42,988 nt of DNA from a virus. The stretch lies in IMG/VR virus record IMGVR_UViG_3300045988_130630. One strand, 5' to 3'. The notes under the pieces are model-generated. The model was given only the letters and a program-made list of their open reading frames with translations, did no database searches and had not been told where the DNA came from. The translations under genes were made by a program, and so were the position numbers. Numbering within the stretch: position 1 is the first letter of the stretch; each line of letters starts with the position of its first letter. Shown piece by piece: positions 7,700-26,132 of this stretch.

Positions 7700-8077
7700 T
7701 CACTTGTTAATGAAAGTATTCAAAAAATCGGCAATTACATCATCGTCAGTTCTCTTAACCTTCTTAACCTTTACCTTCTCACTCTTGGGAAAAAGCACAT
7801 CAAGAAGATCGTTAACCCCGGTCATAAGACCATAAACCTCAGCAAAGATATTCTCCACATCGGACGCGGTCAACTCAGAATCCTTGTGGCCATTAAGAGC
7901 GGCATACTCGTTAATCCGATCGGCGATTTCCTGCGCGAGCGCGGTCTTCCGATCGGCCTGCTTGGACTCCTTCTCCACCTGCGCGACCGCAGCGTTCAGA
8001 GACTTAGCCATTTCGTCCGCAATAGCCTGAGCGTCCTCACCATTCTTCAGACGAGCAATAATATCATTCATATCCAT
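7700..8077 (-). CDS. hypothetical protein (125 aa)
   Basis: Supplied ORF track. Its promoter is at 8109-8137. Confidence 0.55.
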   Translation of the reverse strand: MDMNDIIARLKNGEDAQAIADEMAKSLNAAVAQVEKESKQADRKTALAQEIADRINEYAALNGHKDSELTASDVENIFAEVYGLMTGVNDLLDVLFPKSEKVKVKKVKRTDDDVIADFLNTFINK

Positions 8078-8108
8078 ATGAATACCTCTTTTCTTATTTT
8101 CTATATAT

Positions 8109-8137
8109 ATTATATACTATTTTTTTAAAATTGTCAA
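8109..8137 (-). promoter_or_regulatory. sigma70-type promoter (TTGACA, 17-bp spacer, TATAAT) for gene 7700-8077
   Basis: Reverse-complement of 8109-8137 reads TTGACAattttaaaaaaatagtaTATAAT. Confidence 0.55.
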
Positions 8138-8239
8138 GATTTTTTTAAATGAAAACATACGCGTGAAACAATGTAAGGGCGAAGCAATTTTTAATTAATC
8201 ATAAAGGCATATGATCCTACGCGGGCTTAAAAAAGTCTT

Positions 8240-8590
8240 TTTTTATCATTATAACATATTTTTTATAAAAAGTCAATTTTCGGGATTTTTTTGGGCCATA
8301 TGGAGAGGTGCTAGAAGTACGAAAAATTTTGCATATGGGTATACCGATCGGGAAATCGGCCCGCGACGTTCCACCGCGGGCCGGCCAAATAGACTGAGCA
8401 TTCCGGGATTTTAGTCTGAGTCTATTTTAAACACTTTTTTCGCACAAAATTTGCTAAACCTATAATTATTCCGAAATTCCGCCCGGAGCGTCAGTGATCG
8501 GGCGGTCCATTATACCACATTTTCCGATCGGTGTCAATAGGTAAAATGCACAAAAAAAATCAGCAGGTTTTAGTCAACCTGCTGATTGAA
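8240..8590. ncRNA. Non-coding structured region with two GC palindromes (8358-8382, 8479-8505), an imperfect hairpin (8391-8430), a minus-strand promoter (8509-8538) and a terminator (8559-8586); one copy of the convergent-promoter module family
   Basis: No ORF with a ribosome-binding site is present. The palindromes GGCCCGCG..CGCGGGCC and CCGCCCG..CGGGCGG were read directly. Confidence 0.35.
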
Positions 8591-8593
8591 TAT

Positions 8594-9010
8594 TTATGCA
8601 AGAAATGCGTTTACAATTTCATCGAACACCGTGGGGTTAATGTCCACGTTAAAAAAGCGGTCGTTCTTGCGGAACGCTTTGGGGTAGCGTCTAATCAGTT
8701 CCGCACGCAACGCGCTTTCCGCACCCTCGGCGGGATAGTCCCCGCAAGAACGGATTCGATGAATTTCAACGCGCGTGATAGCATACTTTTTTGCATACTC
8801 GCCGATTTCATCACGCAAACGCCCTACAACATCTTTTGCGGAAGTGCCTACTTTGTTAAATTCAAGTTCGTCGTTGTGGTAAAACTTGAAAAAGTAAACC
8901 GCTTGTTCATTTTTCAGATTCTCGCCACAATCAGGCATGAATTCCATAGAAACGGGCGGTCTACCGTCCTTAAATCGGCGTAGCTTAATAGTAATTTCTT
9001 CCATTGGCAC
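8594..9010 (-). CDS. T5orf172 / GIY-YIG-like domain protein (about 137 aa)
   Basis: Contains AVYFFKFYHNDELEFNKVGTSAKDVVGRLRDE, matching the [YF]-h-x-K-h-G-x-T...RL..L core of the T5orf172 family. AGAGAGGA ribosome-binding site. Start is either the ATG at 9004 or the GTG at 9010. Confidence 0.45.
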   Translation of the reverse strand: MPMEEITIKLRRFKDGRPPVSMEFMPDCGENLKNEQAVYFFKFYHNDELEFNKVGTSAKDVVGRLRDEIGEYAKKYAITRVEIHRIRSCGDYPAEGAESALRAELIRRYPKAFRKNDRFFNVDINPTVFDEIVNAFLA

Positions 9011-9025
9011 AAAATCCTCTCTGTT

Positions 9026-9054
9026 GATTGAGGTTTACCATCGTTCTCTCAACC
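9026..9054 (-). promoter_or_regulatory. Conserved 29-bp 5'-leader element GGTTGAGAGAACGATGGTAAACCTCAATC (hairpin GGUUGAG/CUCAAUC), copy 1; copy 2 at 12272-12300
   Basis: The identical 29-mer lies between the promoter and the ribosome-binding site of two different genes (8594-9010 and 11470-12246). Confidence 0.5.
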
Positions 9055-9084
9055 ATTATTTTTTGCACTTTTTGACTTGTTTTG

Positions 9085-9120
9085 GGGTGAAAAACCGCAT
9101 TTTTCAGCGGTTTTTCACCC
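9085..9120. terminator. Terminator with a perfect 14-bp stem (GGGTGAAAAACCGC / GCGGTTTTTCACCC)
   Basis: Read directly. Confidence 0.6.
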
Positions 9121-9127
9121 TTTTTCG

Positions 9128-9535
9128 TCAGTTTTTGGGCTTTCGCTTCTGAATCAGGGTCAATTCGTAGTCATTTTCGCCCACATGGAACGCAATCATG
9201 CGCTCCACATTCGTAATTTCCACGTTTTCGCACGCATTTTCGCTGTTTTCACGCAAAAAAGTAGCGAGTTCCGCGATAATCGAGCGTTTTGTGGGGTTTT
9301 CCTTGCGCTGTCGCTTTTCAAACTTATAAGCGGTCGGCGCTTTGCGTGTTCCGGTCTTAGAATACTTGTTAGCTTCTTTGAGCTTTTCTGCGGACAGGTC
9401 AAAGTCCTTGGCAATTCCATGGTCAATGTCATCATCGTCCATGAGAATTTCTTTTGCTTCCTCGGCAGTACAATCCAACTTTTTCATCAGATTGTCAATC
9501 TTTGCCTGAAAGTCCTTTTCACTCATTTTAGGCAT
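9128..9535 (-). CDS. hypothetical protein (135 aa)
   Basis: Supplied ORF track; AAGGGGG ribosome-binding site; promoter at 9560-9589 (TTGACA, 18-bp spacer, TATAAT). Confidence 0.55.
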   Translation of the reverse strand: MPKMSEKDFQAKIDNLMKKLDCTAEEAKEILMDDDDIDHGIAKDFDLSAEKLKEANKYSKTGTRKAPTAYKFEKRQRKENPTKRSIIAELATFLRENSENACENVEITNVERMIAFHVGENDYELTLIQKRKPKN

Positions 9536-9599
9536 TTTCTTTGCCCCCTTTCAAGTATGATTATAACACCGCCGTTAGCAAATGTCAAGAGAAATTTTT

Positions 9600-9630
9600 G
9601 GGAGCGCCTGATTTTTTTCAGGCGCTCCCC
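9600..9630. terminator. Terminator hairpin GGGAGCGCCTGA / TCAGGCGCTCCC
   Basis: Read directly. Confidence 0.6.
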
Positions 9631-9635
9631 CTGAA

Positions 9636-10013
9636 TCAGTGGGCGAGACGGAAGTAGGACTTGCGCTTGTCCACAATCTTCTCGACGCCGTTCGCTTCAA
9701 TCATCTGACGCAGAAGAGCGGAAACGCGCTGATTGGTGAGGTCGCCCAGACCGTCCACGTTCTTGATGAGTTCGGTCACGGTATACAGCTTGTCAGGATT
9801 CGCGGACAGCTCGGCAAAGATAATGTCCTTGTAGCCGTCGTTGGCAATCTGATTCGCGGTCGGCTTCTTGTCACCGGCGTTCTTGCGGGACAGCAGGTCG
9901 ATTTCGTGGTTGATAAACTCAACCATAGCAGGGTCAGCCTGAACCTCGGACAGTTTGAGCAGAGCCTCGAAACGGTCGCGCTTGGTGAGCTTCTTAACAG
10001 TAGAAGTAGACAT
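9636..10013 (-). CDS. hypothetical protein (125 aa), paralog of 12389-12769
   Basis: About 70% identical to the product of 12389-12769. Both share the identical ribosome-binding-site context AAAGGAATTGATACTATGG and the same promoter type. Confidence 0.6.
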   Translation of the reverse strand: MSTSTVKKLTKRDRFEALLKLSEVQADPAMVEFINHEIDLLSRKNAGDKKPTANQIANDGYKDIIFAELSANPDKLYTVTELIKNVDGLGDLTNQRVSALLRQMIEANGVEKIVDKRKSYFRLAH

Positions 10014-10019
10014 AGTATC

Positions 10020-10700
10020 AATTCCTTTCTTTGGCGGTAGGTCGCTACCCTTTTGATATTATTGAGTATACCACACTTTGGAGTGCTTGTCAAGAGGTTT
10101 CGCAAACTTTTCACACGAATTACTACCCCGACCTGACGGATAATTTATTGTTTGTTGATTCAATCTATTTGTCAGCGGAAAACCGCGTCAAGGATAGTTG
10201 GTTCAATCAAACTCACTTTCGCGTTCAACGTTTGGCTTTACAACGTGGTGTATTCTGTTTACTTCCTATACTTTCTCAAGGTCGCGCGCCCTCGGATTTC
10301 TTGGGCTACTCCCTCTCGACATTTTCTATTGTAGCACACTCGCTGGGATTTGTCAAGAGGTTTTCAAGAAAAAACTCATGAATTTTTTCTTTTATCCCGT
10401 GCGTTCCGCTCCGAAGAGACCTTAACGTAATAGGCGAACGGTCTATTGCTACTTCCAACCGTAGCCCCACACCGACCTGTGGCTCAGGGGTTCCCCTCTT
10501 GACATTATTTATTGTAGCACTTTTCGCACTACTTGTCAAGAGGGAATTTCAAATTTCTTTGAAAACGGGTCAGTTACCGAGTTATCACACCCATCAGCGA
10601 AGCCGTTCGGCAATTCACTGTTCCCTCTTGACATTATCCATTATAGCAGATTGCCCATAGATTACAATTGACAAAATAACCAAATTACGGGAAAAAATTT
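10020..10700 (-). promoter_or_regulatory. Tandem array of four sigma70-type promoters (-35 hexamers at about 10085, 10360, 10525 and 10660 in plus-strand coordinates) with no convincing downstream ORF; three place ATGTC(A/G)AGAGGG 2-5 nt after the -10
   Basis: Reverse-complement reads CCTCTTGACA, 17 bp, TACAAT, then aaATAATGTCAAGAGGG. Repeated three times; the first copy drives gene 9636-10013. Confidence 0.45.
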
Positions 10701-10725
10701 TCTTCATTTTTGTGCAACTTTTCTC

Positions 10726-10754
10726 TTGACAAAATTGGCGGGGCGTGGTATAAT
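10726..10754 (+). promoter_or_regulatory. Plus-strand sigma70-type promoter (TTGACA, 17-bp spacer, TGGTATAAT) of module B, firing into the GC palindrome at 10764-10788
   Basis: Read directly. Confidence 0.5.
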
Positions 10755-10792
10755 GGTGAATTCGGCCCGCTTTGGGCGTTGGCGGGCCGGCC

Positions 10793-10821
10793 ATTTTATC
10801 ACAAAAATCCGCGTTTGTCAA
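10793..10821 (-). promoter_or_regulatory. Minus-strand promoter (TTGACA, 17-bp spacer, TAAAAT) of module B, convergent with the plus-strand promoter
   Basis: Reverse-complement reads TTGACAaacgcggatttttgtgaTAAAAT. Confidence 0.45.
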
Positions 10822-10835
10822 TAGACAAAATAGAC

Positions 10836-10870
10836 AAAAAAAACTACCCATTTTTGGGTAGTTTTTTTAT
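10836..10870. terminator. Bidirectional terminator (CTACCCA/TGGGTAG hairpin with A8 and T7 flanks)
   Basis: Read directly. Confidence 0.6.
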
Positions 10871-11116
10871 TCAATCCAAAAGGTTAATCTCGCCGGGAAT
10901 TTTGAAAGAATCAGCGTCCAGCGTGGAATTGTAGTCCTCGGTAAAGAGTTCAATCATTCCACATTCCATGATGTAATTCTGCACCGCCCGCTGAACATTT
11001 CTCCAAAGGTCAGTCTTTCGGCTTTCCTCACGGGCTTTTCTGGCTTCCTGTATCTGGATAATGAGTTCGTCCAGTTCCTCGTCGGTCATGTAATTAAAAT
11101 TCAAATCCATTTTCAA
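10871..11116 (-). CDS. hypothetical protein (81 aa)
   Basis: Supplied ORF track; ATGA overlap with the upstream gene. Confidence 0.5.
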   Translation of the reverse strand: MKMDLNFNYMTDEELDELIIQIQEARKAREESRKTDLWRNVQRAVQNYIMECGMIELFTEDYNSTLDADSFKIPGEINLLD

Positions 11117-11391
11117 AACTCCCTTTTAATTGCTTTTTCCCACACTTCACGACCGAATTTTCTCTCGCGGTCTAACTTCTTGCCAATGTCTTTTGCGGTC
11201 AGCAGGTCAAGCTCGTCCGCAATCTCGGCTTCAAAGTTTACCCAAAAGTCGTAGGTCTTGATGATGAAAACTTCATCGGCTTCAAAGACGCCGCCGCACT
11301 CGGCGCAGATAATATAGTCATGGTCGATTAAAATGCCCATGTGAGGGTCATTGTCATCAGGGACTACAAAAAGAACTTGTTTAGCGTTCAT
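11113..11391 (-). CDS. hypothetical protein (about 92 aa; start MNAKQVLF, with CxxC)
   Basis: AAAGAGG ribosome-binding site before the ATG at 11391; consensus promoter at 11421-11449. Confidence 0.5.
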   Translation of the reverse strand: MNAKQVLFVVPDDNDPHMGILIDHDYIICAECGGVFEADEVFIIKTYDFWVNFEAEIADELDLLTAKDIGKKLDRERKFGREVWEKAIKREF

Positions 11392-11420
11392 GTGAAACAC
11401 CTCTTTCATTTGATATATTG

Positions 11421-11449
11421 ATTATACCATAGGGAATAGGACTTGTCAA
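11421..11449 (-). promoter_or_regulatory. Consensus sigma70-type promoter with extended -10 (TTGACA, 17-bp spacer, TGGTATAAT)
   Basis: Reverse-complement reads cTTGACAagtcctattccctaTGgTATAAT. Confidence 0.6.
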
Positions 11450-11469
11450 GCCCTATTCCCTATTTTTTT

Positions 11470-12246
11470 TTAGCTCATGTTTACAACGGGATTTTCCTTA
11501 ATGTTTCGCATGAGCGCGCGCTGAAACTCGGTCGGCTTGGGGCGTTCCACCGTGGGAGCTTTGAAAAGGGATTTTTCCATGGGTTTGTGCTGTCGGACGC
11601 AATAGCGCAGAATCTCAACTTCAATGAGAACATCTTCAAGTCCCGTATGCGATTCATCAAAACTGTCCTCGCCGCTGATAAAGCGGTAGAGAATTTCTGC
11701 GGTAAAGCGGAGCTGTCCGTTCTTGGTCTTGTAGCCGTTCTTTTCGCAATAGTCGCGGTAAGTGGGCATCTGACCGATAACCTGTCGCGCCATTTTCAAG
11801 GTGTCCCAGATTTCAAGGTCATAGGGGAAGAAATAACGATACTTGCTTTTCGTGTCCCATCTTTGCGCATTGTTGCAGGCGTTCAAGTCGAACCGCATAT
11901 TATGAGCGCAGACAAAAGAGCAGTTATAACGCTCGACACATTCGCAGAACGCCTGACGAATTTCGTAAAGGTCAGCCATAATGCGCGAACCATTCTTAAT
12001 GTCCTCAATGTAGCGAGGAATCTTGTCGGCGTAGTATGCGGACTGCATGAGGTCGCGCTCGTAGCAGAAAATGTCGCGATTCACAAAGGAATAAGTTTCA
12101 TAAACATTTCCCTTGGAATCAATGACCGCCCAGCCGAAGTCGTAGGGAAGTACATTTGACATATCCAGCTTATCGCCGTCCTGAATGGTGTTTGCGGTTT
12201 CCGTGTCCAGCATAATGCCGTAGTTTTTGCGCCTATCAATACCCAT
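11470..12246 (-). CDS. DEDDh-family (DnaQ-like) 3'-5' exonuclease (258 aa)
   Basis: Exo I motif MLDTETAN, Exo II CAHNMRFDLN and Exo III HTGLEDV. AGGAGACG ribosome-binding site. Promoter TTGACA, 17-bp spacer, TGcTATACT at about 12305-12335. Confidence 0.6.
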   Translation of the reverse strand: MGIDRRKNYGIMLDTETANTIQDGDKLDMSNVLPYDFGWAVIDSKGNVYETYSFVNRDIFCYERDLMQSAYYADKIPRYIEDIKNGSRIMADLYEIRQAFCECVERYNCSFVCAHNMRFDLNACNNAQRWDTKSKYRYFFPYDLEIWDTLKMARQVIGQMPTYRDYCEKNGYKTKNGQLRFTAEILYRFISGEDSFDESHTGLEDVLIEVEILRYCVRQHKPMEKSLFKAPTVERPKPTEFQRALMRNIKENPVVNMS

Positions 12247-12350
12247 CTTATCGTCTCCTATTGGAAAAGTAGATTGAGGTTTACCATCGTTCTCTCAACC
12301 TCTGATAATAGTATAGCACTTTGCTATTGGTTTGTCAACAGTTTTTTTGT

Positions 12351-12380
12351 AGGGCAGGGGATTTTTTTTATCCCCTGCCC
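12351..12380. terminator. Terminator (GGGCAGGGGA / TCCCCTGCCC hairpin around a T8 run)
   Basis: Read directly. Confidence 0.6.
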
Positions 12381-12388
12381 TTTTCCCT

Positions 12389-12769
12389 TTACGCGAGGGA
12401 GAAGTAGGACTTGCGCTTGTCAACCGTCTTGACAACGGTGTTGGCTTCAATCATCTGACGCAGAAGAGCGGAAACGCGCTGATTGGTATACTCCGCGAGT
12501 TCGGGAACGGTCTTGATGAGGTCGGTCACGGTATACAGCTTGTCAGGGTTCGCGGTCATCTCGTCCAGAATGACCTGCTTCACAGCGTCATTCTCCATCT
12601 GCTTGGCCGTGGGCTTCTTGTCGCCCGCGTTCTTCTTGGCGAGCAGTTCAATCTCATGCTCGATGAACGCCACCATATCAGGATTTGCCTGAACCTCATT
12701 CATTTTGAGCAGAGCCTCGAAACGGTCGCGCTTGGTGAGCTTCTTAGTAGTAGAAGTAGAAGTAGCCAT
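12389..12769 (-). CDS. hypothetical protein (126 aa), paralog of 9636-10013
   Basis: See the paralog at 9636-10013. Promoter at about 12825-12855 (TTGACA, 17-bp spacer, TATAAT). Confidence 0.6.
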   Translation of the reverse strand: MATSTSTTKKLTKRDRFEALLKMNEVQANPDMVAFIEHEIELLAKKNAGDKKPTAKQMENDAVKQVILDEMTANPDKLYTVTDLIKTVPELAEYTNQRVSALLRQMIEANTVVKTVDKRKSYFSLA

Positions 12770-13274
12770 AGTATCAATTCCTTTCTGGTTTTTAAGACTG
12801 TCCTTGTCTTTGATGTAGTTATTATATCATAGGCGGAGCAGGTTGTCAATAGTTTTTACAAATTTTTTTTTAGGGGCGGTCGCGAGGTTTATTACTATAC
12901 ATCTTGTTTATGCCTACCTTTATCTATACTCTTAAACCAATTCAATTTACTAAGCCATTAGTTTTTAAGGCGGTGGGCGAGCATTAGAAGTCATCTTGTT
13001 TTTACCTCTCTCATTTGATGTATTCATTATACCATAGGTCGAGCGGTTTGTCAAGGGGTTTTTCAAACTTTTTTTGAAAGTTTGTTCGGCACGCCACGCT
13101 TGGAACATTCCTTGTGTCGGCTTCTGGTATGATGGTCAAAGGAACTGCCTTTCCGTAGGTCTTACTCTTTCCTCCTGACATTATGTAGTATAGCAGATTG
13201 GAACTGATTTGTCTATTAACGAAATAACCAAATTACGGGAAAAAATAAAATTGAAATTTGTGCGAAATTTCTCT

Positions 13275-13302
13275 TGACAAAAATGCTGGCAGGGTGTATA
13301 AT
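13275..13302 (+). promoter_or_regulatory. Plus-strand promoter (TTGACA, 16-bp spacer, TATAAT) of module C, firing into the palindrome CCGGCCG..CGGCCGG (13311-13337)
   Basis: Read directly. Confidence 0.5.
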
Positions 13303-13340
13303 GGTAAATTCCGGCCGTAGCGCGCGGAAACGGCCGGCCA

Positions 13341-13369
13341 ATTATATCACATTTAAGGAACTTTGTCAA
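13341..13369 (-). promoter_or_regulatory. Minus-strand promoter (TTGACA, 17-bp spacer, TATAAT) of module C
   Basis: Reverse-complement reads ctaTTGACAaagttccttaaatgtgaTATAAT. Confidence 0.5.
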
Positions 13370-13382
13370 TAGTCAAAGTAAA

Positions 13383-13420
13383 CAAAAAAAATCTCCCCGT
13401 TTTGGGGAGATTTTCTTTTA
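13383..13420. terminator. Bidirectional terminator (ATCTCCCCG/CGGGGAGAT hairpin with A8 and T-rich flanks)
   Basis: Read directly. Confidence 0.6.
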
Positions 13421-13675
13421 GCCAATTACATTGACTTCGGTTTTGACAGGCGTCACCATCTTGTCGCGCGAGAACTCGCGAACCTGACCCGTTTCAAGAT
13501 TCACCGCGTAGCAATACTGCGAACCTCTCGACCGGACAAACGGCGTGTTGTTGTTGCTGTCAATTTTGAGATACATTCCCATACCGCTACCGTTGGAGCG
13601 CAGAGTGGTGAACGTGCCACCGCTGAGAATGTTAATAATTTGGAGCTGACCCTTAGTGCCAAAATTTACTTTCAT
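13418..13675 (-). CDS. hypothetical protein (85 aa)
   Basis: Supplied ORF track; GGAGAAA ribosome-binding site. Confidence 0.5.
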   Translation of the reverse strand: MKVNFGTKGQLQIINILSGGTFTTLRSNGSGMGMYLKIDSNNNTPFVRSRGSQYCYAVNLETGQVREFSRDKMVTPVKTEVNVIG

Positions 13676-13849
13676 TTTTATTTCTCCTCTCTTAAAGCAG
13701 ATGGGTATTAACCCATTCTGCGGTCACAAGTCCGATTTCCTTAGAGACAACCGTTTCATAGCGGTAATTACCGCCATCAGTTCGTCCGGTCACTTTGGCG
13801 AGAACGCCAAGTGTCAACCAAAAATAAGGCATCATTTTTTTACCCCCTA

Positions 13850-14050
13850 TTACTTACTGCTCGGAAAGATAGCGCCCAGAAGTGCGAGGATAATCCAAAC
13901 CACGAGCGCCAGCTTCCACGAGAACACGATAACAAAAGTGCCGATTGCGGTGATACCGAGGGCGGGAAGAAGCCAGCAGAGAAGCCAGACAAGGCCCGAA
14001 GTAGCAAGGAACGAAAACGCGAGAGACAGCAGAATCAAAAGAACAAACAT
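13850..14050 (-). CDS. small membrane protein with two transmembrane helices (about 66 aa)
   Basis: Start taken at the third Met (MFVLLILLS), which has an AAAGGGGAAAA ribosome-binding site. Promoter at about 14075-14110. Confidence 0.5.
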   Translation of the reverse strand: MFVLLILLSLAFSFLATSGLVWLLCWLLPALGITAIGTFVIVFSWKLALVVWIILALLGAIFPSSK

Positions 14051-14104
14051 TTTATTTTCCCCTTTCATTTGATACATTTATTATACCATTGGAGTAGGGC
14101 TTTG

Positions 14105-19184: not shown

Positions 19185-19214
19185 TTTACTTACCTCTTTC
19201 TTGATTGTATATGT

Positions 19215-19243: not shown

Positions 19244-19257
19244 GCCCTTTTTATCAG

Positions 19258-19615: not shown

Positions 19616-19832
19616 GGAAATTCCGGGCGCGTGGGCCGTGCGCGCCCGGCCGAACGACCATTGTTAAAATTTTAACAAAAATAAAATAGAAAGGGCGCGG
19701 TAATTATCGGCTACCGCGCAAACCATAGTATGAAAAATTTGTTTACTACTTCAAGAGGCTTACCATTTCCTCTTGACATGATTATAATACCACAACGGGG
19801 CGAGTTTGTCAATAGTTTTTTGAAAAAAATTT

Positions 19833-19860
19833 TCAGGCGAGATAATTAAATCTCGCCTGA
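19833..19860. terminator. Terminator hairpin TCAGGCGAGAT/ATCTCGCCTGA
   Basis: Read directly. Confidence 0.55.
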
Positions 19861-19863
19861 AAA

Positions 19864-20070
19864 TTATTCGTCCCAAATAGCTCCCGCAATCCAAAAGTAT
19901 TCATAGCGGAGTTTCGACTGAAACGCAAATAAAGCATCTGCGATTTCTCCACCGATTTCGCGGTCATCTGCCACGGGAAGCGTCTGACTTTCTTTCGCAA
20001 TTCTTTGAGCCAACTTTTCAAGGGCGTCTGCCTGTTCTCTCAAAGCCTGCGGGATAGGTTTTTCATTCAT
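19864..20070 (-). CDS. hypothetical protein (about 68 aa, start MNEKPIPQ)
   Basis: AAGGGGGAAA ribosome-binding site. Confidence 0.45.
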   Translation of the reverse strand: MNEKPIPQALREQADALEKLAQRIAKESQTLPVADDREIGGEIADALFAFQSKLRYEYFWIAGAIWDE

Positions 20071-20419
20071 TATTTGTTTCCCCCTTTGCAAAATTAGATG
20101 TTAGCTCTAACGTATGTCCGCATTTATCACAATACCAATAGTAAAAAACTGTTCCATGCCGACCGTGAGAAGCATTTACAAATTCCATTTCATTTCCGCA
20201 GATGGAGCAATAGCCGTCATTCCATGCCTTTTTATCGGCATTGTGTTCTGCAATTATCATGCCCACCATACCATAGCCAAGGGCGCATGAAATGAGAAGA
20301 CCAGCCAACAGTCTGGCTATTGGGTGAGACTTTTCCATGTTGCACCAACAGATAAGGCAAATGAACATTGCCAGAACTGCGCTGATGATTCCGCCACAAA
20401 TTAAGAATTCTGCTCCCAT
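20063..20419 (-). CDS. membrane protein with a C-terminal CxxC...CxxC zinc ribbon (about 118 aa)
   Basis: Track ORF with the start taken at MGAEFLICGG. Confidence 0.5.
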   Translation of the reverse strand: MGAEFLICGGIISAVLAMFICLICWCNMEKSHPIARLLAGLLISCALGYGMVGMIIAEHNADKKAWNDGYCSICGNEMEFVNASHGRHGTVFYYWYCDKCGHTLELTSNFAKGETNNE

Positions 20420-20422
20420 TTT

Positions 20423-20494
20423 TATTTCCCCTCTCCGCATTTAACGCATTGAGCGTGTGTTCCGCACTTCCCATCACAATAAGGACATTCCATT
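20423..20494 (-). CDS. 23-aa zinc-ribbon micro-protein MECPYCDGKCGTHAQCVKCGEGK
   Basis: AGGGGAATAAAAAAATG ribosome-binding site and start. Its stop overlaps the start of the downstream membrane Zn-ribbon gene. Confidence 0.35.
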
Positions 20495-20570
20495 TTTTTA
20501 TTCCCCTTTCCTTTGATACATTAAGTATAGCAGAAAAAGGGCTTTTTGTCAAGCCCTTTTTCTTATTTTT

Positions 20571-20927
20571 TTATTCTTTTTCTCGAATGGAATAATAAAC
20601 CTTACTCCCTCGCGGCCTGCGTTTGAGTTTATGGTCGAGGTATAACTGCATACAATACCAAGTGAATTTGCCGTTGGCATACTCATAGCCATACTTTTTG
20701 AATGCCATAAACTGCATTTCAGTCGGCGTGATAGGTCTGCCCGCCTCGTTCAGCAGTTCAAAGACGAGTTTAATCATCTGCTGATTTTTCCATTCGCGTT
20801 CCTCGCGGTCGGCTTTTAAGTCTCTTTCATATTTGTCGCAAGCGTGTTCCGCGATACTCAGATCAATGGGCGAGAGAGTGCCCGACGCGATAGCCTTTTT
20901 CAAAACTTCATAGATATCCTTGTTCAT
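20571..20927 (-). CDS. hypothetical protein (118 aa)
   Basis: Supplied ORF track; promoter at about 20950-20990. Confidence 0.5.
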   Translation of the reverse strand: MNKDIYEVLKKAIASGTLSPIDLSIAEHACDKYERDLKADREEREWKNQQMIKLVFELLNEAGRPITPTEMQFMAFKKYGYEYANGKFTWYCMQLYLDHKLKRRPRGSKVYYSIREKE

Positions 20928-21026
20928 TGTAGTTTCCCCTTTCCTTTATTGTGCTTTTATTATAGCATCTGTTTTTGGATTTGTCAAGGGCTTTTTGGAA
21001 AAAGAGGGAAAAATTTCCCTCTTTAT

Positions 21027-21299
21027 TTATCCCCAATAGACCGAAAGAACGCCGTCAATGTAGCTGGCTTTATAACCATAATTCTGCATGATATTTTTGC
21101 AAGCCTGCTTGACGCCCTTTTCATTTAATGAAGCAAGATTGCACTCATAAACTGTTTCTCCCGTTCCTGCCACACGCTCAATTTCCGGCATGATATGGTC
21201 TTCGATAAACGCACATGCGAGGGCATTATTTTTAGCTTGGATTTCTCTGCGGACTTCTTCGGCCTTGCGCGTCATTTCATAAGCATATTTAATTTCCAT
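21027..21299 (-). CDS. hypothetical protein (90 aa)
   Basis: Supplied ORF track. Confidence 0.5.
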   Translation of the reverse strand: MEIKYAYEMTRKAEEVRREIQAKNNALACAFIEDHIMPEIERVAGTGETVYECNLASLNEKGVKQACKNIMQNYGYKASYIDGVLSVYWG

Positions 21300-21364
21300 G
21301 TTGTTTTCTCCCTTTCCTTTGATGCTTTTATTATAGCATATAGGGCTTGTTTTGTCAAGCCTTT

Positions 21365-21493
21365 TTAAGAAATTTCAAAAATTTCTTCGTAGCCATCGTC
21401 CCATGCCTGTCGGCATTTCGTGTTATCTTCATTAGTGTATTCATCATAGCCGAAGCCCATGGATTCAACACGTCCTACAAAAATCCATTTCAT
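21365..21493 (-). CDS. small protein (42 aa) MKWIFVGRVESMGFGYDEYTNEDNTKCRQAWDDGYEEIFEIS
   Basis: AAAGGGGATAATTAAATG ribosome-binding site and start; consensus promoter at 21526-21554. Confidence 0.45.
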   Translation of the reverse strand: MKWIFVGRVESMGFGYDEYTNEDNTKCRQAWDDGYEEIFEIS

Positions 21494-21525
21494 TTAATTA
21501 TCCCCTTTCCTCAACTTCTGATACT

Positions 21526-21554
21526 ATTATACCCCACAGGGTGAGAAATGTCAA
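21526..21554 (-). promoter_or_regulatory. Consensus sigma70-type promoter (TTGACA, 17-bp spacer, GGTATAAT)
   Basis: Read directly. Confidence 0.6.
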
Positions 21555-21562
21555 TAGTTTTT

Positions 21563-22363
21563 TTAATTATTTTCTGTAATGTATTCCCATCTTAACCGTT
21601 CTCCTGTATCCGGGTCTTTACCGGCTGTTTTTAATTGTCCGCGCAAACAACGACCAATAGCATCTTTGTATGTATTGTAGTATGCTTCGGCTTCTCTTAC
21701 TGATAGAAACTCTTTGCCATTATTCAAGCATCTAATTCGTTTACCGCTCTTTAATTTGTTTGCCTGTGGCCCCAATGCCAAATTTTTCTTTGTTTCTTCT
21801 GGGTGCCGTTCTCTCCATTCAATCAATGCTTGTTTGCCTTGTTCTCTGTATTGTTGCGCTTTTTCTGGATGTGCAGCAATCCATTGTTTTAATACTTCTG
21901 GATTGCCTGTATTACATTCAGGATGTTCTTTTTGCCACTCATGGCATTTTTTTATATTTTGTTTACCCAATTTAGATACAATTTCTTTATGTTCATTCTA
22001 CCATTTTTTTACAGCATCTATCCGGCGTTGTTGAAATTCTTGTGCTTCTTTTGGGTGTTCTTGTAAGTATAGGTGGAAATACTCAAAACCACCACCATCA
22101 CCGCCACAGGCTAAATTGTAAAATTCTTCACTATTGACAGCGTTGTATTTTTCAATGTATTGCTTTTCTAATTCGTTGGCTTCTTCTTTTGTCTCGCAAG
22201 TTGCTAATGTAATTTTAGAAAAATTTTCTCGTCCATACTTTTTTATTGCTTCTCGTAAAATTTTCCCACTACCTAAATAATAATCATTCTTTTTAGATAA
22301 TTTGTGCTATCCTAAATATTTTTTATCATTGACTAAATTAGTAGTCAAATAAATTTCATACAT
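21563..22363 (-). CDS. TAG-recoded GIY-YIG homing endonuclease with a C-terminal NUMOD-like helix-turn-helix (266 aa), in an AT-rich island inside the GC-rich early block
   Basis: N-terminal MYEIYLTTNLVNDKKYLG(TAG)HKL, where the TAG encodes the Gln of the YIGQ motif. Further features are ..E..E..YI..Y and a C-terminal ..KRIRCLNNGKEFLSVREAEAYY...IGRCLRG..KTAG...W.YI. There are two in-frame TAGs and no other stop until 21565. GAAAGGA ribosome-binding site. The supplied track ORF 21563-21970 is the C-terminal part. Confidence 0.65.
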
Positions 22364-22402
22364 AATAAAAAATTCCTTTCTGCTTCATTCTATTATAATT
22401 AA

Positions 22403-22448
22403 AAATTGCGGCGTTTGGTTTAATAGTCTTTGACCAAACGCCGCAATT
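22403..22448. terminator. Terminator with a 17-bp stem (AAATTGCGGCGTTTGGT / ACCAAACGCCGCAATTT) followed by T8
   Basis: Read directly. Confidence 0.6.
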
Positions 22449-22452
22449 TTTT

Positions 22453-22761
22453 TTAACAATAAACCAAACTCAAATTTGACCACTTCAAAATGGAAATTTG
22501 ATTGTGTTCGCGCCCAATCTGTAAGGCTTCTTTCTTAGTGTTGACCCGCTTAGACTTATCAACGAACCAAGTATTATTGCTATACCACACACCGCAGTTT
22601 CCGCCGAAGTCCTTAACCGCATTGATAGCTTCGCGGGCGGTCTTGCACTCAACGCCGTCGGTAGCAACCTGCCAGCCGGACTTGTAGTTGATTTTCTTGC
22701 CATATTTGAGGGTCATGCCGTCGTTTTCAGCGAGTTTGAGAATAGAACGAATGTTAATCAT
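22453..22761 (-). CDS. hypothetical protein (102 aa)
   Basis: AAAGGG ribosome-binding site; promoter at about 22805-22850. Confidence 0.5.
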   Translation of the reverse strand: MINIRSILKLAENDGMTLKYGKKINYKSGWQVATDGVECKTAREAINAVKDFGGNCGVWYSNNTWFVDKSKRVNTKKEALQIGREHNQISILKWSNLSLVYC

Positions 22762-22933
22762 GTTGTAAATCCCTTTCCGGTTTGGTAGGTTTTCCTTCCC
22801 TTACTGTGATTATAGTATAGCACCGATTCGGGATTCTGTCTATTGACGCTTTGCACAAACTTTTGCCATAAAAATTGTTGAACTTGCCTATTGACAAAAA
22901 CTCGGCGCGCCAGGTCCGTTCGCGCGCCGGCCG

Positions 22934-22962
22934 ATTATACCACAAAGTTTTGAAATTGTCAA
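22934..22962 (-). promoter_or_regulatory. Minus-strand promoter of module G (TTGACA, 17-bp spacer, TATAAT); the palindrome CGGCGCGCC..GGCGCGCCGG lies at 22903-22930
   Basis: Read directly. Confidence 0.5.
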
Positions 22963-22974
22963 TAGGTAAAATGC

Positions 22975-23010
22975 ACAAAAAAATCTCCCCATTTTTGGGG
23001 AGATTTTTAA
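22975..23010. terminator. Bidirectional terminator (ATCTCCCCA/TGGGGAGAT); same hairpin family as 13391-13411
   Basis: Read directly. Confidence 0.6.
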
Positions 23011-23026
23011 TTTAAAAAATTTAATT

Positions 23027-23266
23027 TTAGCCATCGACATAAACGATAAGGACATCATCTTTGGCTTTCAGACCGCTGACCGGCAATCCCAGCACCCATT
23101 CTTCGCTTGCGTCCAGCACATCACCATTCAGAGTCATACGACCTTTGCGGTCTTTGAGGTAGCGCCCGCAAGTGTTTTCATTTATCACTTCGATGCCGTT
23201 CCCCTCATAGAACATCAGTGCGCCTTTTACCAGACCAATCACATTTTTAACCATGCCCAAAGTCAT
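23027..23266 (-). CDS. hypothetical protein (79 aa)
   Basis: Supplied ORF track. Confidence 0.5.
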   Translation of the reverse strand: MTLGMVKNVIGLVKGALMFYEGNGIEVINENTCGRYLKDRKGRMTLNGDVLDASEEWVLGLPVSGLKAKDDVLIVYVDG

Positions 23267-23382
23267 TTTGTCAACCTCTTTCGTCTTTAATGTCGTTCCC
23301 CTTGGAACAATTATAGTATAGCATAGGGTATAACAAAAGTCAACTTAAATTTTGGGATTGCCAATAGGTAAAATGTATAAAA

Positions 23383-23415
23383 AACTCGGCAGGATTTTGT
23401 ATGTCCTGCCGAGTT
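23383..23415. terminator. Terminator (AACTCGGCAGGA/TCCTGCCGAGTT followed by a T-run)
   Basis: Read directly. Confidence 0.55.
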
Positions 23416-23418
23416 TTT

Positions 23419-23613
23419 TTATTCTTCCCAACTCTCGATGACTTCGCCGGTCATTGCATCGATGATGTCAACCGAGAGGACGTTGTCTGCGTCCATGAAC
23501 TTCTGTCCGAGGGCGTATGCATTTTCCTGCCCCGCGACAGACACTTCATAGCGGTAATGCCCCATGTCGCCCGCCTTGTAATTGTAGTAGTTGACAGAAA
23601 CGATAAATAACAT
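23419..23613 (-). CDS. hypothetical protein (64 aa)
   Basis: Supplied ORF track; promoter at about 23640-23680. Confidence 0.5.
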   Translation of the reverse strand: MLFIVSVNYYNYKAGDMGHYRYEVSVAGQENAYALGQKFMDADNVLSVDIIDAMTGEVIESWEE

Positions 23614-23716
23614 TTTTTTTATCCCCTTTCCTTTTATGCTTTTATTATACCATAGATTCAGGATTTGTCAATAGTTTTTTGAAAAAAGTTTGAAAAAAAT
23701 AAGGGCGTTTCCGCCC

Positions 23717-23971
23717 TTATTCTTCATAAACGATAATGTTGTTGCCTTGCTTTTTAACGCGGGAATCTTCACAAAAGTGATAGGTAAAATCTGCGGAGAG
23801 ATGTTTGAGAAATTCGCGTCTCCATTCGCGGGACTTCGGCTCTAATTCAAAGAGAATGTAGAGCGTTTCCTCTAACCGGTCGAGGAAGTTTTCAGTGTCC
23901 GCGACGTTGAATTTGCCCGCGAGCTTTGGTTCAAGAGAAGCGCCAGTAGTGAGAATGTTGTAAGTAGTCAT
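23717..23971 (-). CDS. hypothetical protein (84 aa)
   Basis: Supplied ORF track. A terminator lies at 23697-23722 and a promoter at about 23995-24035. Confidence 0.5.
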   Translation of the reverse strand: MTTYNILTTGASLEPKLAGKFNVADTENFLDRLEETLYILFELEPKSREWRREFLKHLSADFTYHFCEDSRVKKQGNNIIVYEE

Positions 23972-24074
23972 GGTTTTTATCCCCTTTCTTATTGTATCTA
24001 CATTATAACATCTGCTTTTGGATTTGTCAAGAGTTTTTTATAAAAAAAATAAGGGCTTTTTTCAGCCCTTATTC

Positions 24075-24236
24075 TTAGCACTTGACCCACGTGTTGACTA
24101 ATTTCCGCTCAATGGTCGCGGGCTTCGTCAGAGTGTTCGCATACGCCTGTGCTTCTTTCTTAGTCTTAAAGTAAGTCGGCAAGTAGTAGCCAAGGCGAGC
24201 GCTGTAATTATCTTCGGTGTAAACTCTGTATTTCAT
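24075..24236 (-). CDS. hypothetical protein (about 53 aa, start MKYRVYTEDNY)
   Basis: AAAGGAAAGGGG ribosome-binding site. Confidence 0.4.
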   Translation of the reverse strand: MKYRVYTEDNYSARLGYYLPTYFKTKKEAQAYANTLTKPATIERKLVNTWVKC

Positions 24237-24328
24237 TCTTTGTTTTCCCCTTTCCTTTACTATAATTATAATACCACACACCGCGAAGAATGTCAAGTGT
24301 TTTTTTCAAAAAAAAGAGAAGTTTTTCA

Positions 24329-24448
24329 ACTTCTCTTTCTGCGACGAATTGCTTTCTTTACGCGGTGCTCCACGTATTCGATGAGCGCGCCCGCGCCGAT
24401 AACACCAACATAGATAGCGAGAAGAACAAGACCATCGTGAGTAGACAT
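24329..24448 (-). CDS. 39-aa membrane peptide MSTHDGLVLLAIYVGVIGAGALIEYVEHRVKKAIRRRKRS
   Basis: GAGGTAAATCAAATG ribosome-binding site and start; a hydrophobic helix with a basic tail. Not in the ORF track because it is shorter than 60 aa. Confidence 0.4.
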
Positions 24449-24633
24449 TTGATTTACCTCTTTCTTTCTTTTGATGATACTATTATAGCATTTCGGGATA
24501 GAAATGTCAAGTGAATTTTGGCAAAAAATGGAAAAAATTTTGCTTTAACGCTTTACTGTGGTAAAGTTCGGGCTGGGACGCCCTACACGCGCCCAACGGC
24601 GCAAGAGAAAGAGCGGGAAGCCCGCTCCCGCCC

Positions 24634-24843
24634 TTAATACATTTCGCTACTGGGTTCAACTGTAAAATACTCAACGTTCTGCAAGTCGAGCTTGCCATAG
24701 AACTTATCATTATACATTGTAGCACCTGTCGCAAGTAAGTCGTTCATCTTACCTGCGATTTCCATGGCGCGCTGTTCCTCGAACGCCTGCTGGAAGAGAT
24801 AGCCCTGACCGCCCTTAGTGTAATAAACAATGCCATAAATCAT
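24634..24843 (-). CDS. hypothetical protein (69 aa)
   Basis: Supplied ORF track. Confidence 0.5.
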   Translation of the reverse strand: MIYGIVYYTKGGQGYLFQQAFEEQRAMEIAGKMNDLLATGATMYNDKFYGKLDLQNVEYFTVEPSSEMY

Positions 24844-24973
24844 TTTTCATTCCCCTTTCCTTTTGTGATTATAGAATACCACATTCTAACTGATTTGTCA
24901 AGACCTTTTTGAGAAAAATCTTCGTTAATTTTTTAACAATCTGCGCCGTAGGAAAGGAAGCATTACTGCTCCC

Positions 24974-25264
24974 TTATTCTGTGTAAAGACTTATCAATTC
25001 ATTTATCTTTTCAATGGCTTCATCAATGTCATCGAGGTAATTGTCTGCTAACATACTTGCATGGCTGGCTTCCTCGTAGGCTTCATACGCGTCGTTGAGT
25101 TCCTGCGTGCCAAACTTACCCAAGCTCTCAAAGGCGTTGACAATGTTCCATGTCTTAGCCATTTCCCCTCGCTTAACCTGGCAGTCATTGAACGCTGGCT
25201 TGCTCTCGTTCATTAAACGTTCCTTTTCAGCTTTGAGGGTGTTGTAAAAATCCTGATTAGTCAT
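24974..25264 (-). CDS. hypothetical protein (96 aa)
   Basis: Supplied ORF track. Confidence 0.5.
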   Translation of the reverse strand: MTNQDFYNTLKAEKERLMNESKPAFNDCQVKRGEMAKTWNIVNAFESLGKFGTQELNDAYEAYEEASHASMLADNYLDDIDEAIEKINELISLYTE

Positions 25265-25394
25265 TTGACTATTCCCCTTTCTTTATTGTATCTACATTGT
25301 AGCACATCATCGCGCATTTGTCAAGAGTTTTTTTACTCTTCTCTGCTTGTTAATTTTTTAACAATCTTCGCCGATCCGCAAGAAAGAGAGAGAC

Positions 25395-25757
25395 TTAGTA
25401 AGCCTCTCTCCATACCTTAATGATTGTATCATCTTCCACAGTATCAGTGTCATTGTCGTTAATCCACAAGAGCAAGAAGTCGTTGTCATCAATGTTAAGT
25501 GCTTCCACGTCCCACAGATTGTCTTGCTCGTCAATGAGCGTCAGGGTATCGCCCTCGCGTGCGTAGACCTCTGCGCCGACGAAACGAATGCTTCCGCGTT
25601 CCGTGCCTGCACCGCACCAATTCTCAATGACCGAGAGGTCGTAGGACTGGGGCGCCTCTTCACAGGCTTCCGCCGTTGTGTGGTCGTGGAATCCGAAGAA
25701 AGACACAGAGAGAATGATAGCAATGGCCATGGTGATGATTTTGGAAACGTTTTTCAT
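25395..25757 (-). CDS. secreted acidic protein with an N-terminal signal peptide (120 aa)
   Basis: Hydrophobic N-terminus KIITMAIAIILSVSFFGF; AAAGAGG ribosome-binding site; promoter at about 25780-25815. Confidence 0.5.
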   Translation of the reverse strand: MKNVSKIITMAIAIILSVSFFGFHDHTTAEACEEAPQSYDLSVIENWCGAGTERGSIRFVGAEVYAREGDTLTLIDEQDNLWDVEALNIDDNDFLLLWINDNDTDTVEDDTIIKVWREAY

Positions 25758-26132
25758 TTTGATTTACCTCTTTCTTTTTGATGATACAAGTATAGCACAT
25801 GACTACTGGATTGTCAATAGTCATTTTGCACAAATGTGATGGCGTAGTTTCGGGTATTTTGACGATTGTGCATTATGACGAAGTTTTGGCGAAAAATTTG
25901 TGCAAACTGCTGATTTTTATAAAACTCGGCTCGCCACTACCGCCAGCGAGCCGAGCAACGTTTACCGGGGTGTTTGTGCGGGATGGCATCTTGCGTTCCG
26001 CAAAAGAGCGAGAGTAAGGCTGGTATACTCTCAGAGAATAAACGAGTTAGAACCTTATGGATGGGGGTGTATTTCGGGAAAAAATTTTTTTTGATTTGTG
26101 TTTTTTCTTTTGCGTGGTCAAAACGCAATCTA

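Follow-up and report, generated by a model that had tools for sequence, protein, structure and literature searches.

Positions 7600 to 26000 of the IMG/VR virus record IMGVR_UViG_3300045988_130630 (42,988 nt; the whole of this stretch is called the window below) carry a block of 44–46 small open reading frames (ORFs) on the minus strand, together with about 40 near-consensus promoters of the sigma-70/sigma-A type. The block is most probably (about 0.75) a hyperplastic early region, devoted to host takeover or accessory functions and made up of self-contained expression cassettes, in a large, uncultured Firmicutes phage of the gut with TAG-recoded late genes. This reading builds on what was observed of the motifs (strand, geometry, statistics and conservation within the phage family), on insertions and deletions of single cassettes, and on a split in genetic code and codon usage between early and late genes. 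These observations support the view that the promoters are of host type, with an extended −10 element, and serve small early-type genes. A massive recruitment of host RNA polymerase, which had been proposed in an initial annotation of this DNA, would be a reasonable inference from such an array.

Promoter array in the early block

Sites of the form TTGACA-N16–18-TATAAT were counted in the region 7600–26000 and in 200 dinucleotide shuffles. On the minus strand, 46 sites agreed with the consensus at 10 or more of the 12 positions, against 3.9±1.7 in shuffles, and 34 at 11 or more, against 0.18±0.44. Nineteen sites were perfect, while no perfect site occurred in any of the 200 shuffles. A TGn directly 5′ of the −10 box was present in 32 of the 34 sites with at least 11 matches, a combination found 0.01 times in shuffles. 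The plus strand of the block contained only three to four such sites and the flanks (1–7599 and 26001–42988) none to two. This count was stricter than a first tool scan, which had given 103 promoter-like sites against 39.9±5.6 in shuffles. The promoter density claimed in the initial annotation was thereby confirmed against shuffled controls, and its four examples (8137–8109, 11449–11421, 19243–19215 and 21554–21526) all proved to be 12/12 matches on the minus strand.

The consensus of 39 units was tt.t..aaaaaa.ctcTTGACAAa-(10 variable)-tgTGnTATAaT, i.e. an UP-like A/T tract followed by the −35 box, a 17-bp spacer, the extended −10 element and the −10 box. The spacer measured 17 bp in 39 of 41 promoters. 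The motifs lie on the strand of the genes, and in most units the −10 box ends 28–33 nt before an ATG that is preceded by a purine-rich Shine-Dalgarno (SD) sequence. The strong GGAGG ribosome-binding sites reported earlier were only partly recovered: exact GGAGG is rare, and the usual form is an extended purine-rich SD sequence, (A)GAAAGGGGA or AGAAAGAGGT. Similarly, the claim that nearly every gene has its own promoter held for 29 of the 46 ORFs, which have a proximal promoter; the remaining ORFs belong to short, often overlapping operons.

Pairwise identity among the promoters was high in the functional parts (−35 box, 0.95; −10 box, 0.85; TGn, 0.71) and near random elsewhere (spacer core, 0.30; leaders, 0.34; spacer core, flanks and leaders together, 0.30–0.35). 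Similar spacers were found in only 4 of 741 promoter pairs. The conservation of hexamers and TGn next to near-random spacers and leaders indicates that the promoters are individually maintained and are not recent copies of one repeat. A terminator hidden in every promoter, with the −35 box in a hairpin loop, was considered and rejected, as the −35 box lies inside the loop of an inverted repeat in only 6 of 41 promoters; these six are neat terminator-promoter fusions (e.g. 20524–20563).

Genetic code and codon usage

In the standard code, the terminase-, portal- and virion-like proteins of the right flank are seen only as fragments, and for this reason a Pfam search of the flank ORFs in that code returned nothing. 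Reading TAG as sense resolved them: long plus-strand ORFs (352, 401, 580, 559 and 529 aa, among others) then form an unbroken series from 27.0 to 43.0 kb, with 1–12 in-frame TAGs per late gene. Outside the block, TAG recoding covers 27290–42988 (+), and also 264–1208 (−) and 5202–5876 (+). One late gene translated with TAG as Gln was 100% identical to a database protein, and in a GIY-YIG ORF, described below, one TAG occupies the Gln position of the canonical 'YLGQ' motif. Readings with TGA or TAA as sense were rejected, since they produced overlapping ORFs on both strands.

The terminase is 44–47% identical to those of Enterococcus phages VRE9_4, H1 and EF1, of Geobacillus phage E3, of an Alicyclobacillus phage and of the TAG-recoded gut phage phAss-1. 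Overall, phages of Enterococcus, Geobacillus, Alicyclobacillus and Brevibacillus come closest among those deposited, together with phAss-1, whose predicted host belongs to the Clostridia (PMC10607447). Related contigs reach about 190–197 kb. The TAG-as-sense ORFs and the terminase relatives together point to a large TAG-recoded phage of Bacillota, and judged by these sequences the host is very probably a Firmicute (Bacillota). Megablast of the block and the right flank against GenBank phages gave no match. A tRNA scan of the 43-kb window, which is part of a genome of about 190 kb, detected no tRNA and hence no suppressor tRNA(CUA) in the window. No Rfam family reached its gathering score in the window, and a permissive Rfam scan of the block gave sub-threshold matches only, on terminator hairpins.

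The block differs from its surroundings in composition, with a GC content of 41–47% against 23–35% in the flanks; its intergenic DNA has a GC content of 0.37. Early genes have a GC content at third codon positions (GC3) of 0.53, late genes one of 0.22. CAG accounts for 78% of the Gln codons in early genes, whereas late genes use CAA (57%) and TAG (26%); the preferred Leu codons are CTC, CTG and CTT in early genes and TTA in late genes. Early genes end in TAA (28), TGA (15) or TAG (1), the lone TAG stop lying outside the GC-rich block, and contain no in-frame TAG at all, so that the block can be read in either code. The cassettes may owe their separate codon usage to adaptation to the tRNA pool of the host, or they may be of foreign origin. 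Borges et al. (bioRxiv 10.1101/2021.08.26.457843) proposed that recoded phages have their early genes translated in the code of the host, a model with which the TAG-free, standard-code early block agrees.

Three further observations were made in the flanks. The stretch 5000–7000 has a GC content of 23–28%, a GC skew of +0.39 and hardly any standard-code ORFs; the 225-aa ORF at 5202–5876 (+) is visible only with TAG as sense; and a small TAG-containing ORF lies at 31338–31677 (+) between the terminase-like and the portal-like genes.

Conservation and exchange of cassettes in relatives

For a 'sigma-like' protein encoded to the right of the block, 476 relatives are present in IMG/VR and more than 6,800 in a large protein collection. 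In relatives with 71–99% identity in this protein, 6–21 strong promoters on the early strand were found in the 10 kb upstream of the sigma-like gene and 0–1 in the 10 kb downstream, and GC content was higher upstream in nearly all of them. The cultured Enterococcus phage EF1, with a standard-code genome of uniform GC content (about 29%), carries a smaller block of the same design at the same place. The presence of the array in this non-recoded phage indicates that the promoter architecture is older than the recoding. In EF1 (our locus L104), about 16 near-consensus promoters precede small minus-strand genes between 11000 and 16600, all of which are annotated as hypothetical in the deposited record; two antisense promoters (11035 and 12987) are each followed by a GC hairpin.

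Gene content of the block changes quickly. Of 21 neighbouring genes, 12 are shared at 99% identity of the sigma-like protein but only 0–4 at 71–84%, often at other places. Close relatives are mosaics, with 67 distinct synteny breakpoints in the block, 30 of which fall into promoter-leader windows that make up 17% of it (binomial p about 1e-7). Two junctions could be resolved at the nucleotide level, and both crossovers lie inside promoter repeats. In one related locus (L001), the promoter of the 96-aa gene 14964–14674 joins the leader of the following gene, the fusion lying within a shared TGGTATAATACA, so that exactly one gene and one promoter are deleted. The same loss of one gene with one promoter is seen there for the 49-aa gene 19184–19035, the shared crossover sequences being TGGTATAATACA and TATAATACAAT.

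Several contigs of close relatives (L009, L012, L024 and L026) have their ends at one or other border of the block, at positions equivalent to about 7.4 kb and 26.1 kb of the window. These breaks are probably due to strain-level mosaicism that tangles the assembly; they could also hint at a physical genome end.

Proposed working and alternative explanations

A cassette would consist of an UP-like A/T tract, cTTGACAa, a 17-bp spacer, TGnTATAAT, a leader of about 22–26 nt with an extended SD sequence, and a small ORFan. Upon infection, these maximal-strength signals would immediately be recognised by the ribosomes of the host and by its unmodified sigma-A RNA polymerase, and about 45 small proteins would appear in a burst, ahead of any factor made by the phage. 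The genes would be written so as to be readable at that stage, i.e. in the standard code, without TAG and with a GC3-rich codon usage unlike that of the late genes. The near-identical −35, −10 and leader sequences would double as short homology patches, and recombination between them would add, delete and swap single-gene cassettes, as seen at the two junctions and as may apply generally. Such recombination would explain both the private promoter of most genes and the fast turnover of gene content. Later, expression would pass to TAG-containing genes, including the divergent sigma-like gene, which would need TAG suppression. Recognition by sigma-A, early timing, high expression, roles in takeover or anti-defence and the switch to the late genes are what the sequence features would predict.

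Several points weigh against this interpretation. Promoter activity and early timing are deduced from sequence, and the high GC3 could mirror a foreign origin of the cassettes instead of host-like codon usage. Some strong promoters, at 10667, 10539, 10356 and 19812 and in the Pa/Pb pairs of the repeated module described below, have no convincing ORF, so that the cassette scheme does not apply to all promoters. Searches of Pfam, NCBIfam and PDB and a fold search did not confirm that the sigma-like protein is a sigma factor. Finally, enrichment of breakpoints in promoter-leader windows does not in itself prove promoter-mediated recombination, as it would also arise if no insertions and deletions survive but those that spare genes.

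An array of this kind might instead act as a sink for sigma-A or RNA polymerase, titrating the host holoenzyme, with the ORFs being secondary; titration had also been suggested in the initial annotation. About 45 promoters per genome are few compared with a cellular pool of thousands of RNA polymerase molecules before replication. The very dense promoters with their near-perfect consensus and UP-like tracts would suit a sink, and so would the strong promoters without a convincing ORF and the face-to-face pairs, which would give only short RNAs. However, most promoters stand at a fixed 28–33 nt from SD sequence and ATG, which makes them look built for expression and not as decoys, and the ORFs are maintained among close relatives. 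Comparable arrays in EF1, in T4-type phages (PMC2839356) and in SPO1 (PMC6873191) are read as expression cassettes. Titration is without specific support, is not required by any of the data and is improbable. An involvement in genome entry, in which strong promoters at the leading end would pull in the 190-kb genome as T7 early promoters do, appears very improbable, even though the 18 kb contain about 40 strong promoters of one orientation and the block adjoins the terminase and structural module, where packaging often starts. The block is found at arbitrary positions in the contigs of about 190–197 kb; terminators every 2–3 kb would interrupt the pulling, and a motor would need neither the promoter-SD-ATG geometry nor the turnover of cassettes.

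The promoters might also be passive copies of one recently amplified repeat, spread by segmental duplication or in the manner of a miniature inverted-repeat transposable element. Direct-repeat families do cover the promoters, and the block contains two segmental duplications (74% and 73%) and a 250-nt module in seven copies. Against this stand the contrast between conserved boxes and near-random spacer cores, flanks and leaders, the rarity of similar spacers and the persistence of the architecture in relatives that share almost no DNA or genes of the block, and amplification is hardly credible as the origin of the array. Chance matches, for which nothing but the general A/T-richness of the intergenic DNA could be put forward, can be dismissed in view of the 19 perfect sites against none in shuffles, the strand bias, the fixed distance to the start codon and the conservation in relatives. 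The reading as an early region of expression cassettes accordingly remains the preferred one.

We know of no account of how the infection programme starts in stop-codon-recoded phages, which are abundant in gut microbiomes. Under the preferred reading, the block would represent an early compartment that can be recognised from its host promoter type, standard code, avoidance of TAG and own codon usage. The dozens of ORFans per genome would be prime candidates for host-takeover and anti-defence functions, and the promoters would offer a ready-made library of maximal-strength Firmicutes promoter-ribosome-binding-site parts. In uncultured phages, such promoters might serve to mark out early regions and to infer the host phylum.

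Comparison with known systems

The density of promoters had been called unusual in the initial annotation, but it has precedents: each genome of a T4-type phage holds about 50 PeSL (promoter-early stem-loop) cassettes of promoter and terminator (Arbiol et al. 2010, PMC2839356), and SPO1's host-takeover module shows these hallmarks as well (PMC6873191). PeSLs are strong sigma-70-like promoters with AT-rich upstream sequence before ORFans in hyperplastic regions (PMC2839356, PMC4122927); some of their G/C stem-loops overlap the −35 box, and single-ORFan insertions and deletions as well as crossovers between −10 and ATG have been described (PMC2839356; Comeau et al. 2014, PMC4122927). The block resembles them in having a strong sigma-70-like promoter with AT-rich upstream sequence directly before an ORFan, rapid gene turnover, single-ORFan insertions and deletions and junctions of the same kind. 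Unlike PeSLs, the units do not each have a stem-loop terminator (6 of 41 have one around the −35 box, and 8 of 46 gene ends have one), TGn is nearly universal, the promoters form one contiguous unidirectional array of 18 kb, and the genome changes its genetic code between early and late genes. As lineage and host phylum are unrelated, the likeness to PeSLs is best regarded as analogy and not as homology.

The SPO1 module comprises 26 genes and about a dozen promoters in 12.4 kb of terminal redundancy (Stewart et al. 1998, as cited in PMC6873191). Like the block, it belongs to a Firmicutes phage and groups small early genes that have strong promoters and ribosome-binding sites, the likeness being one of sequence and early timing being presumed for the block. 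The block differs in its size, since its 18 kb hold about 45 genes with about 40 promoters. No homologue of SPO1 gp37–60 was detected among the 41 early proteins scanned. The strong early promoters of T5, T7 (A1–A3) and T4 have near-consensus hexamers and A/T-rich upstream sequence, are used by unmodified host RNA polymerase and outcompete host promoters. They number from a handful to a few dozen and are dispersed along the genome, in contrast to the block, where small genes have their own promoters in a contiguous array.

The recoded phages of Borges et al. and the Phassvirus/EF1/PMBT10 group (PMC10607447) share with this phage TAG as Gln in structural and late genes, standard-code early genes, low-GC late genes and Bacillota hosts; phAss-1 itself is only distantly related. 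The word 'promoter' does not occur in either publication, nor does either describe the GC3 split, the TAG-free block or the promoter array. The array is a variant of PeSL-like or host-takeover early cassettes in an unrelated and abundant lineage of TAG-recoded Firmicutes phages. What goes beyond the known are the code and codon compartments, the presumably TAG-gated sigma-like gene and the covarying module with face-to-face promoters. To our knowledge, reports of cassette shuffling by way of promoter repeats have up to now concerned T4-type phages, whose hosts are Gram-negative; it is now seen in a lineage of Firmicutes phages that is unrelated to these and counts thousands of members in metagenomes.

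A repeated module with a covarying hairpin and facing promoters

A module of about 250 nt occurs seven times in the block, at about 8.5, 10.8, 13.35, 15.65, 17.7, 19.6 and 22.95 kb (8474–8590, 10620–10870, 13170–13420, 15470–15725, 17550–17750, 19490–19720 and 22800–23015). On the gene strand, a bidirectional terminator is followed by a promoter Pa, a GC-rich hairpin and a promoter Pc for the next gene; four of the seven copies have, between the hairpin and Pc, an antisense promoter Pb that faces Pa.

Pa is perfect with TG at 22934–22962, where its −10 box ends 2–4 nt before the hairpin, at 13341–13369 and at 8509–8537, and has the form TTGACA-17-TGaTAAAAT at 17672–17700, 15640–15668 and 10793–10821 (all −). 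The near-palindrome TTGWCWATWGWCAA mainly marks Pa copies (6 matches against 0.23 expected). The four Pb promoters (+) are at 10726–10754 (perfect with TG, −10 ending 7–8 nt before the hairpin), 13274–13302 (perfect), 15575–15603 (perfect with TG) and 19587–19615 (TTGATA-17-TGaTATAAT). The Pc type, TAGACA-17-TGcTATACT, is found on the minus strand at 22814–22842 (102-aa gene 22761–22453), at 15488–15516 (87-aa gene 15455–15192) and at 13187–13215, where ATGTCAGGAGG follows and no convincing ORF is seen. A variant with TGtTATATT stands at 19500–19528 (68-aa gene 19460–19254), and a Pc-like TTGTAA-16-TGcTATAAT at 10640–10667 heads an ORF-less unit.

The hairpins have the stem CCGCCCG/CGGGCGG at 8474–8507, CGGCCCGC/GCGGGCCG at 10758–10791, CCGGCCG/CGGCCGG at 13306–13339 and 15606–15639, CCGGGCGCG/CGCGCCCGG at 19618–19651, and CGGCGCGC/GCGCGCCG at 17637–17670 and 22898–22932, followed by GAGTTTTTTG and GAGTTTTTG, respectively. 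With a covariance model of the hairpin, 119 instances were retrieved from the window together with 45 related loci, every one of them on the strand of the early genes. The stem was paired in 98.2% of cells, with compensatory changes in six of eight pairs, and the covariation score was 0.515, against 0.146 in shuffles and at most 0.06 in slid controls. Among 95 distinct instances, 35 had both promoters, 24 only Pa, 13 only Pb and 23 neither. The −10 box of Pa ends 2–4 nt and that of Pb 7–8 nt before the stem, indicating that the complete hairpin would form the 5′ end of an antisense RNA. The predicted antisense RNA of about 105 nt would extend to the bidirectional terminator, and three of four such RNAs fold with z = −4.4 to −7.1. 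Wobble pairs were uninformative about the folding strand of the GC hairpin (8 of G.U type, 8 of A.C type). No Rfam family matched the module, and the covariance model found no match in Enterococcus phage EF1. Interference between convergent promoters, a cis-antisense RNA and a 5′ stabiliser are possible roles of the module.

Face-to-face promoters are known from the switches of P2/186-type phages. The Pa/Pb pairs are likewise convergent, and with −10 boxes about 39 bp apart two polymerases should exclude each other or collide. Unlike the single lysis-lysogeny switch of P2/186, the module occurs in seven copies in an early region, has a covarying GC hairpin between the promoters and is not flanked by repressor genes.

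The sigma-like gene and the change of code

The sigma-like gene (27293–28348, +; 351 aa) has in-frame TAGs at codons 115 and 149. It is preceded by a perfect TTGACA-17-TATAAT promoter (27240–27268, +) that is divergent from the block, shares the geometry of the early cassettes and lies 24 nt upstream of the ATG. The label 'sigma factor' derives only from the family name of PHROG 5767 and from the depositors' annotation of relatives. The promoter was present in all 29 distinct relatives with a valid start, and 28 of them had 1–6 TAGs at partly conserved positions; the EF1 gene has the promoter but no TAG. This arrangement suggests that translation of the sigma-like gene may be gated by TAG suppression. 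If the protein is a true sigma factor, its gene would be transcribed early by host polymerase and translated only after suppression has been established. The TAG-containing gene and the hairpin modules also bear on how the code switch might be wired into gene regulation.

A more far-reaching interpretation, which we regard as tentative and rather doubtful as a whole, is that the array forms the first tier of a two-layer developmental timer of recoded phages and that the seven modules are a new class of switch. Sigma-A promoters might fire on the TAG-free, host-adapted block and divergently on the sigma-like gene, whose message could not be translated before TAG suppression is in place, so that the change of code would gate the change of transcription programme. 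The modules might be a new phage switch acting by cis-antisense small RNA or by interference, which would partition early domains and shut them down.

Individual promoters and genes of the block

The promoters given here lie on the minus strand and are listed from the right end of the block. TTGACA-17-TGcTATACT at 25789–25817, TTGACA-17-TGcTACAAT at 25296–25324 and TTGACA-17-TGgTATTCT at 24873–24901 precede genes of 120 aa (25757–25395), 96 aa (25264–24974) and 69 aa (24843–24634), respectively. A perfect promoter with TG at 24482–24510 (40-aa gene 24448–24326) is followed by TTGACA-17-TGgTATTAT at 24268–24296 (53-aa gene 24236–24075), by two further perfect promoters with TG, at 24002–24030 (84-aa gene 23971–23717) and, with a 16-nt spacer, at 23644–23671 (64-aa gene 23613–23419), and by TTGACT-17-TGcTATACT at 23315–23343 (79-aa gene 23266–23027). 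Three perfect promoters, the first without and the others with TG, are located at 21526–21554 (42-aa gene 21493–21365), 21330–21358 (90-aa gene 21299–21027) and 20959–20987 (118-aa gene 20927–20571). At 20524–20552, the −35 box of TTGACA-17-TGcTATACT forms the loop of an 11-bp A/T+GGGC hairpin in a terminator-promoter fusion, while TTGACA-17-TGgTATTAT at 19784–19812 has ATGTCAAGAGG after the −10 box and no clear ORF.

The cassette missing in L001 that contains the 49-aa gene 19184–19035 has a perfect promoter with TG at 19215–19243. Another one at 19000–19028, with its −35 box in the loop of a GGGGC/GCCCC hairpin, precedes a 112-aa gene (18962–18624). TTGACA-17-TGaTATTAT at 16982–17010 belongs to a cassette that is missing in many relatives (79-aa gene 16952–16713), and TTGACA-17-TGcTATACT at 16209–16237 serves the AbrB-family gene. 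Perfect promoters with TG follow at 14993–15021 (96-aa gene 14964–14674, missing in L001 with the crossover in TATAATACA), 14637–14665 (166-aa HAD/PNK-phosphatase-like gene 14605–14105), 14080–14108 (−35 box in a GGGC/GCCC hairpin loop; 66-aa gene 14050–13850), 13026–13054 and 12821–12849 (126-aa gene 12769–12389). The 258-aa gene 12246–11470 (phrog_20187) has TTGACA-17-TGcTATACT at 12310–12338, and a perfect promoter with TG at 11421–11449, its −35 box in the loop of a 12-bp hairpin, heads a 92-aa gene (11391–11113). TTGACA-17-TGcTACAAT occurs at 10511–10539 and 10328–10356, each time at the head of an ORF-less unit (ATGTCAAGAGG and ATGTCGAGAGG, respectively). The left part of the array contains TTGACA-17-TGgTATACT at 10065–10093 (125-aa gene 10013–9636), a perfect promoter with TG at 9560–9588 (135-aa gene 9535–9128), TTGACT-17-TGtTATAAT at 8248–8276 and a perfect promoter without TG at 8109–8137 (125-aa gene 8077–7700).

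The estimate of about 45 small genes in the initial annotation agrees with the 44–46 minus-strand ORFs called in the block, which encode 30–258 aa and give a coding fraction of about 0.60. The early proteins are almost all ORFans: Pfam matched 2 of the 41 scanned, and the few PHROG matches were mostly to families of unknown function. Besides the HAD/PNK-phosphatase-like protein and the phrog_20187 member, the exceptions include a 150-aa AbrB/SpoVT-family DNA-binding protein (15726–16178, −), which had been recognised earlier and is supported by PF04014 (E=2.7e-9) and TIGR01439 (42 bits against a cut-off of 28.3); both place an AbrB-type swapped-hairpin DNA-binding domain at its N-terminus.

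A homing-endonuclease-like GIY-YIG ORF (21566–22362, −) has a low GC content and two in-frame TAGs. It is contained in a low-GC insertion (21361–22585) that is absent from all close relatives and is preceded by its own terminator at about 22410–22467. The insertion looks like a mobile element that has landed in the early block and not like an early cassette.

On the minus strand at 10100–10667, 13187–13215 and 19700–19812, sequences of the form ATGTC(A/G)(A/G)GAGG start 5–6 nt after the −10 box. The promoters without an ORF could thus drive leaderless micro-ORFs ('MSRG...') of 17–31 aa, three of which end in TAG. Structured RNAs were rejected as an explanation of the ORF-less units at 10.1–10.65 kb and 19.7 kb, whose predicted folding is not more stable than that of shuffles (z = −0.9 to +0.1). 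The two segmental duplications comprise 9583–9882 and 12333–12632 (74%), and 10667–10803 and 13215–13351 (73%). The genes 10013–9636 and 12769–12389 look like paralogs and have near-identical leaders.

Terminators and transcription domains

Only 14 strict terminator-like sites were found on the minus strand, 8 of them at the ends of the 46 genes, which does not bear out a bidirectional terminator for each gene as proposed in the initial annotation. Six or seven of these eight are part of the repeated module, which recurs every 2–3.3 kb. Since strong terminators occur only at these intervals, insulation is at the level of eight multi-cassette domains and not of single genes. This arrangement predicts, for each domain, a nested set of transcripts that start at successive promoters and share one end.

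Domain boundaries are formed by bidirectional terminators with a 12-bp stem at 8558–8587, a 15-bp stem at 15686–15721 and a 13-bp stem at 17717–17745, and by an intrinsic terminator with a 14-bp stem and A/T-tract flanks at 10837–10868 (−). The shared terminator stem ATCTCCCC/GGGGAGAT noted earlier was found again at two further boundaries, in the bidirectional terminators at 13384–13418 and 22984–23003 (TCTCCCC/GGGGAGA). An intrinsic terminator with a 16-bp stem at 19828–19865 (−) follows the gene 20070–19864. Terminator-like hairpins in plus orientation were also observed within this all-minus block, at 9084–9121, 12351–12381, 20532–20563 and 23379–23419, and may stop antisense transcription.

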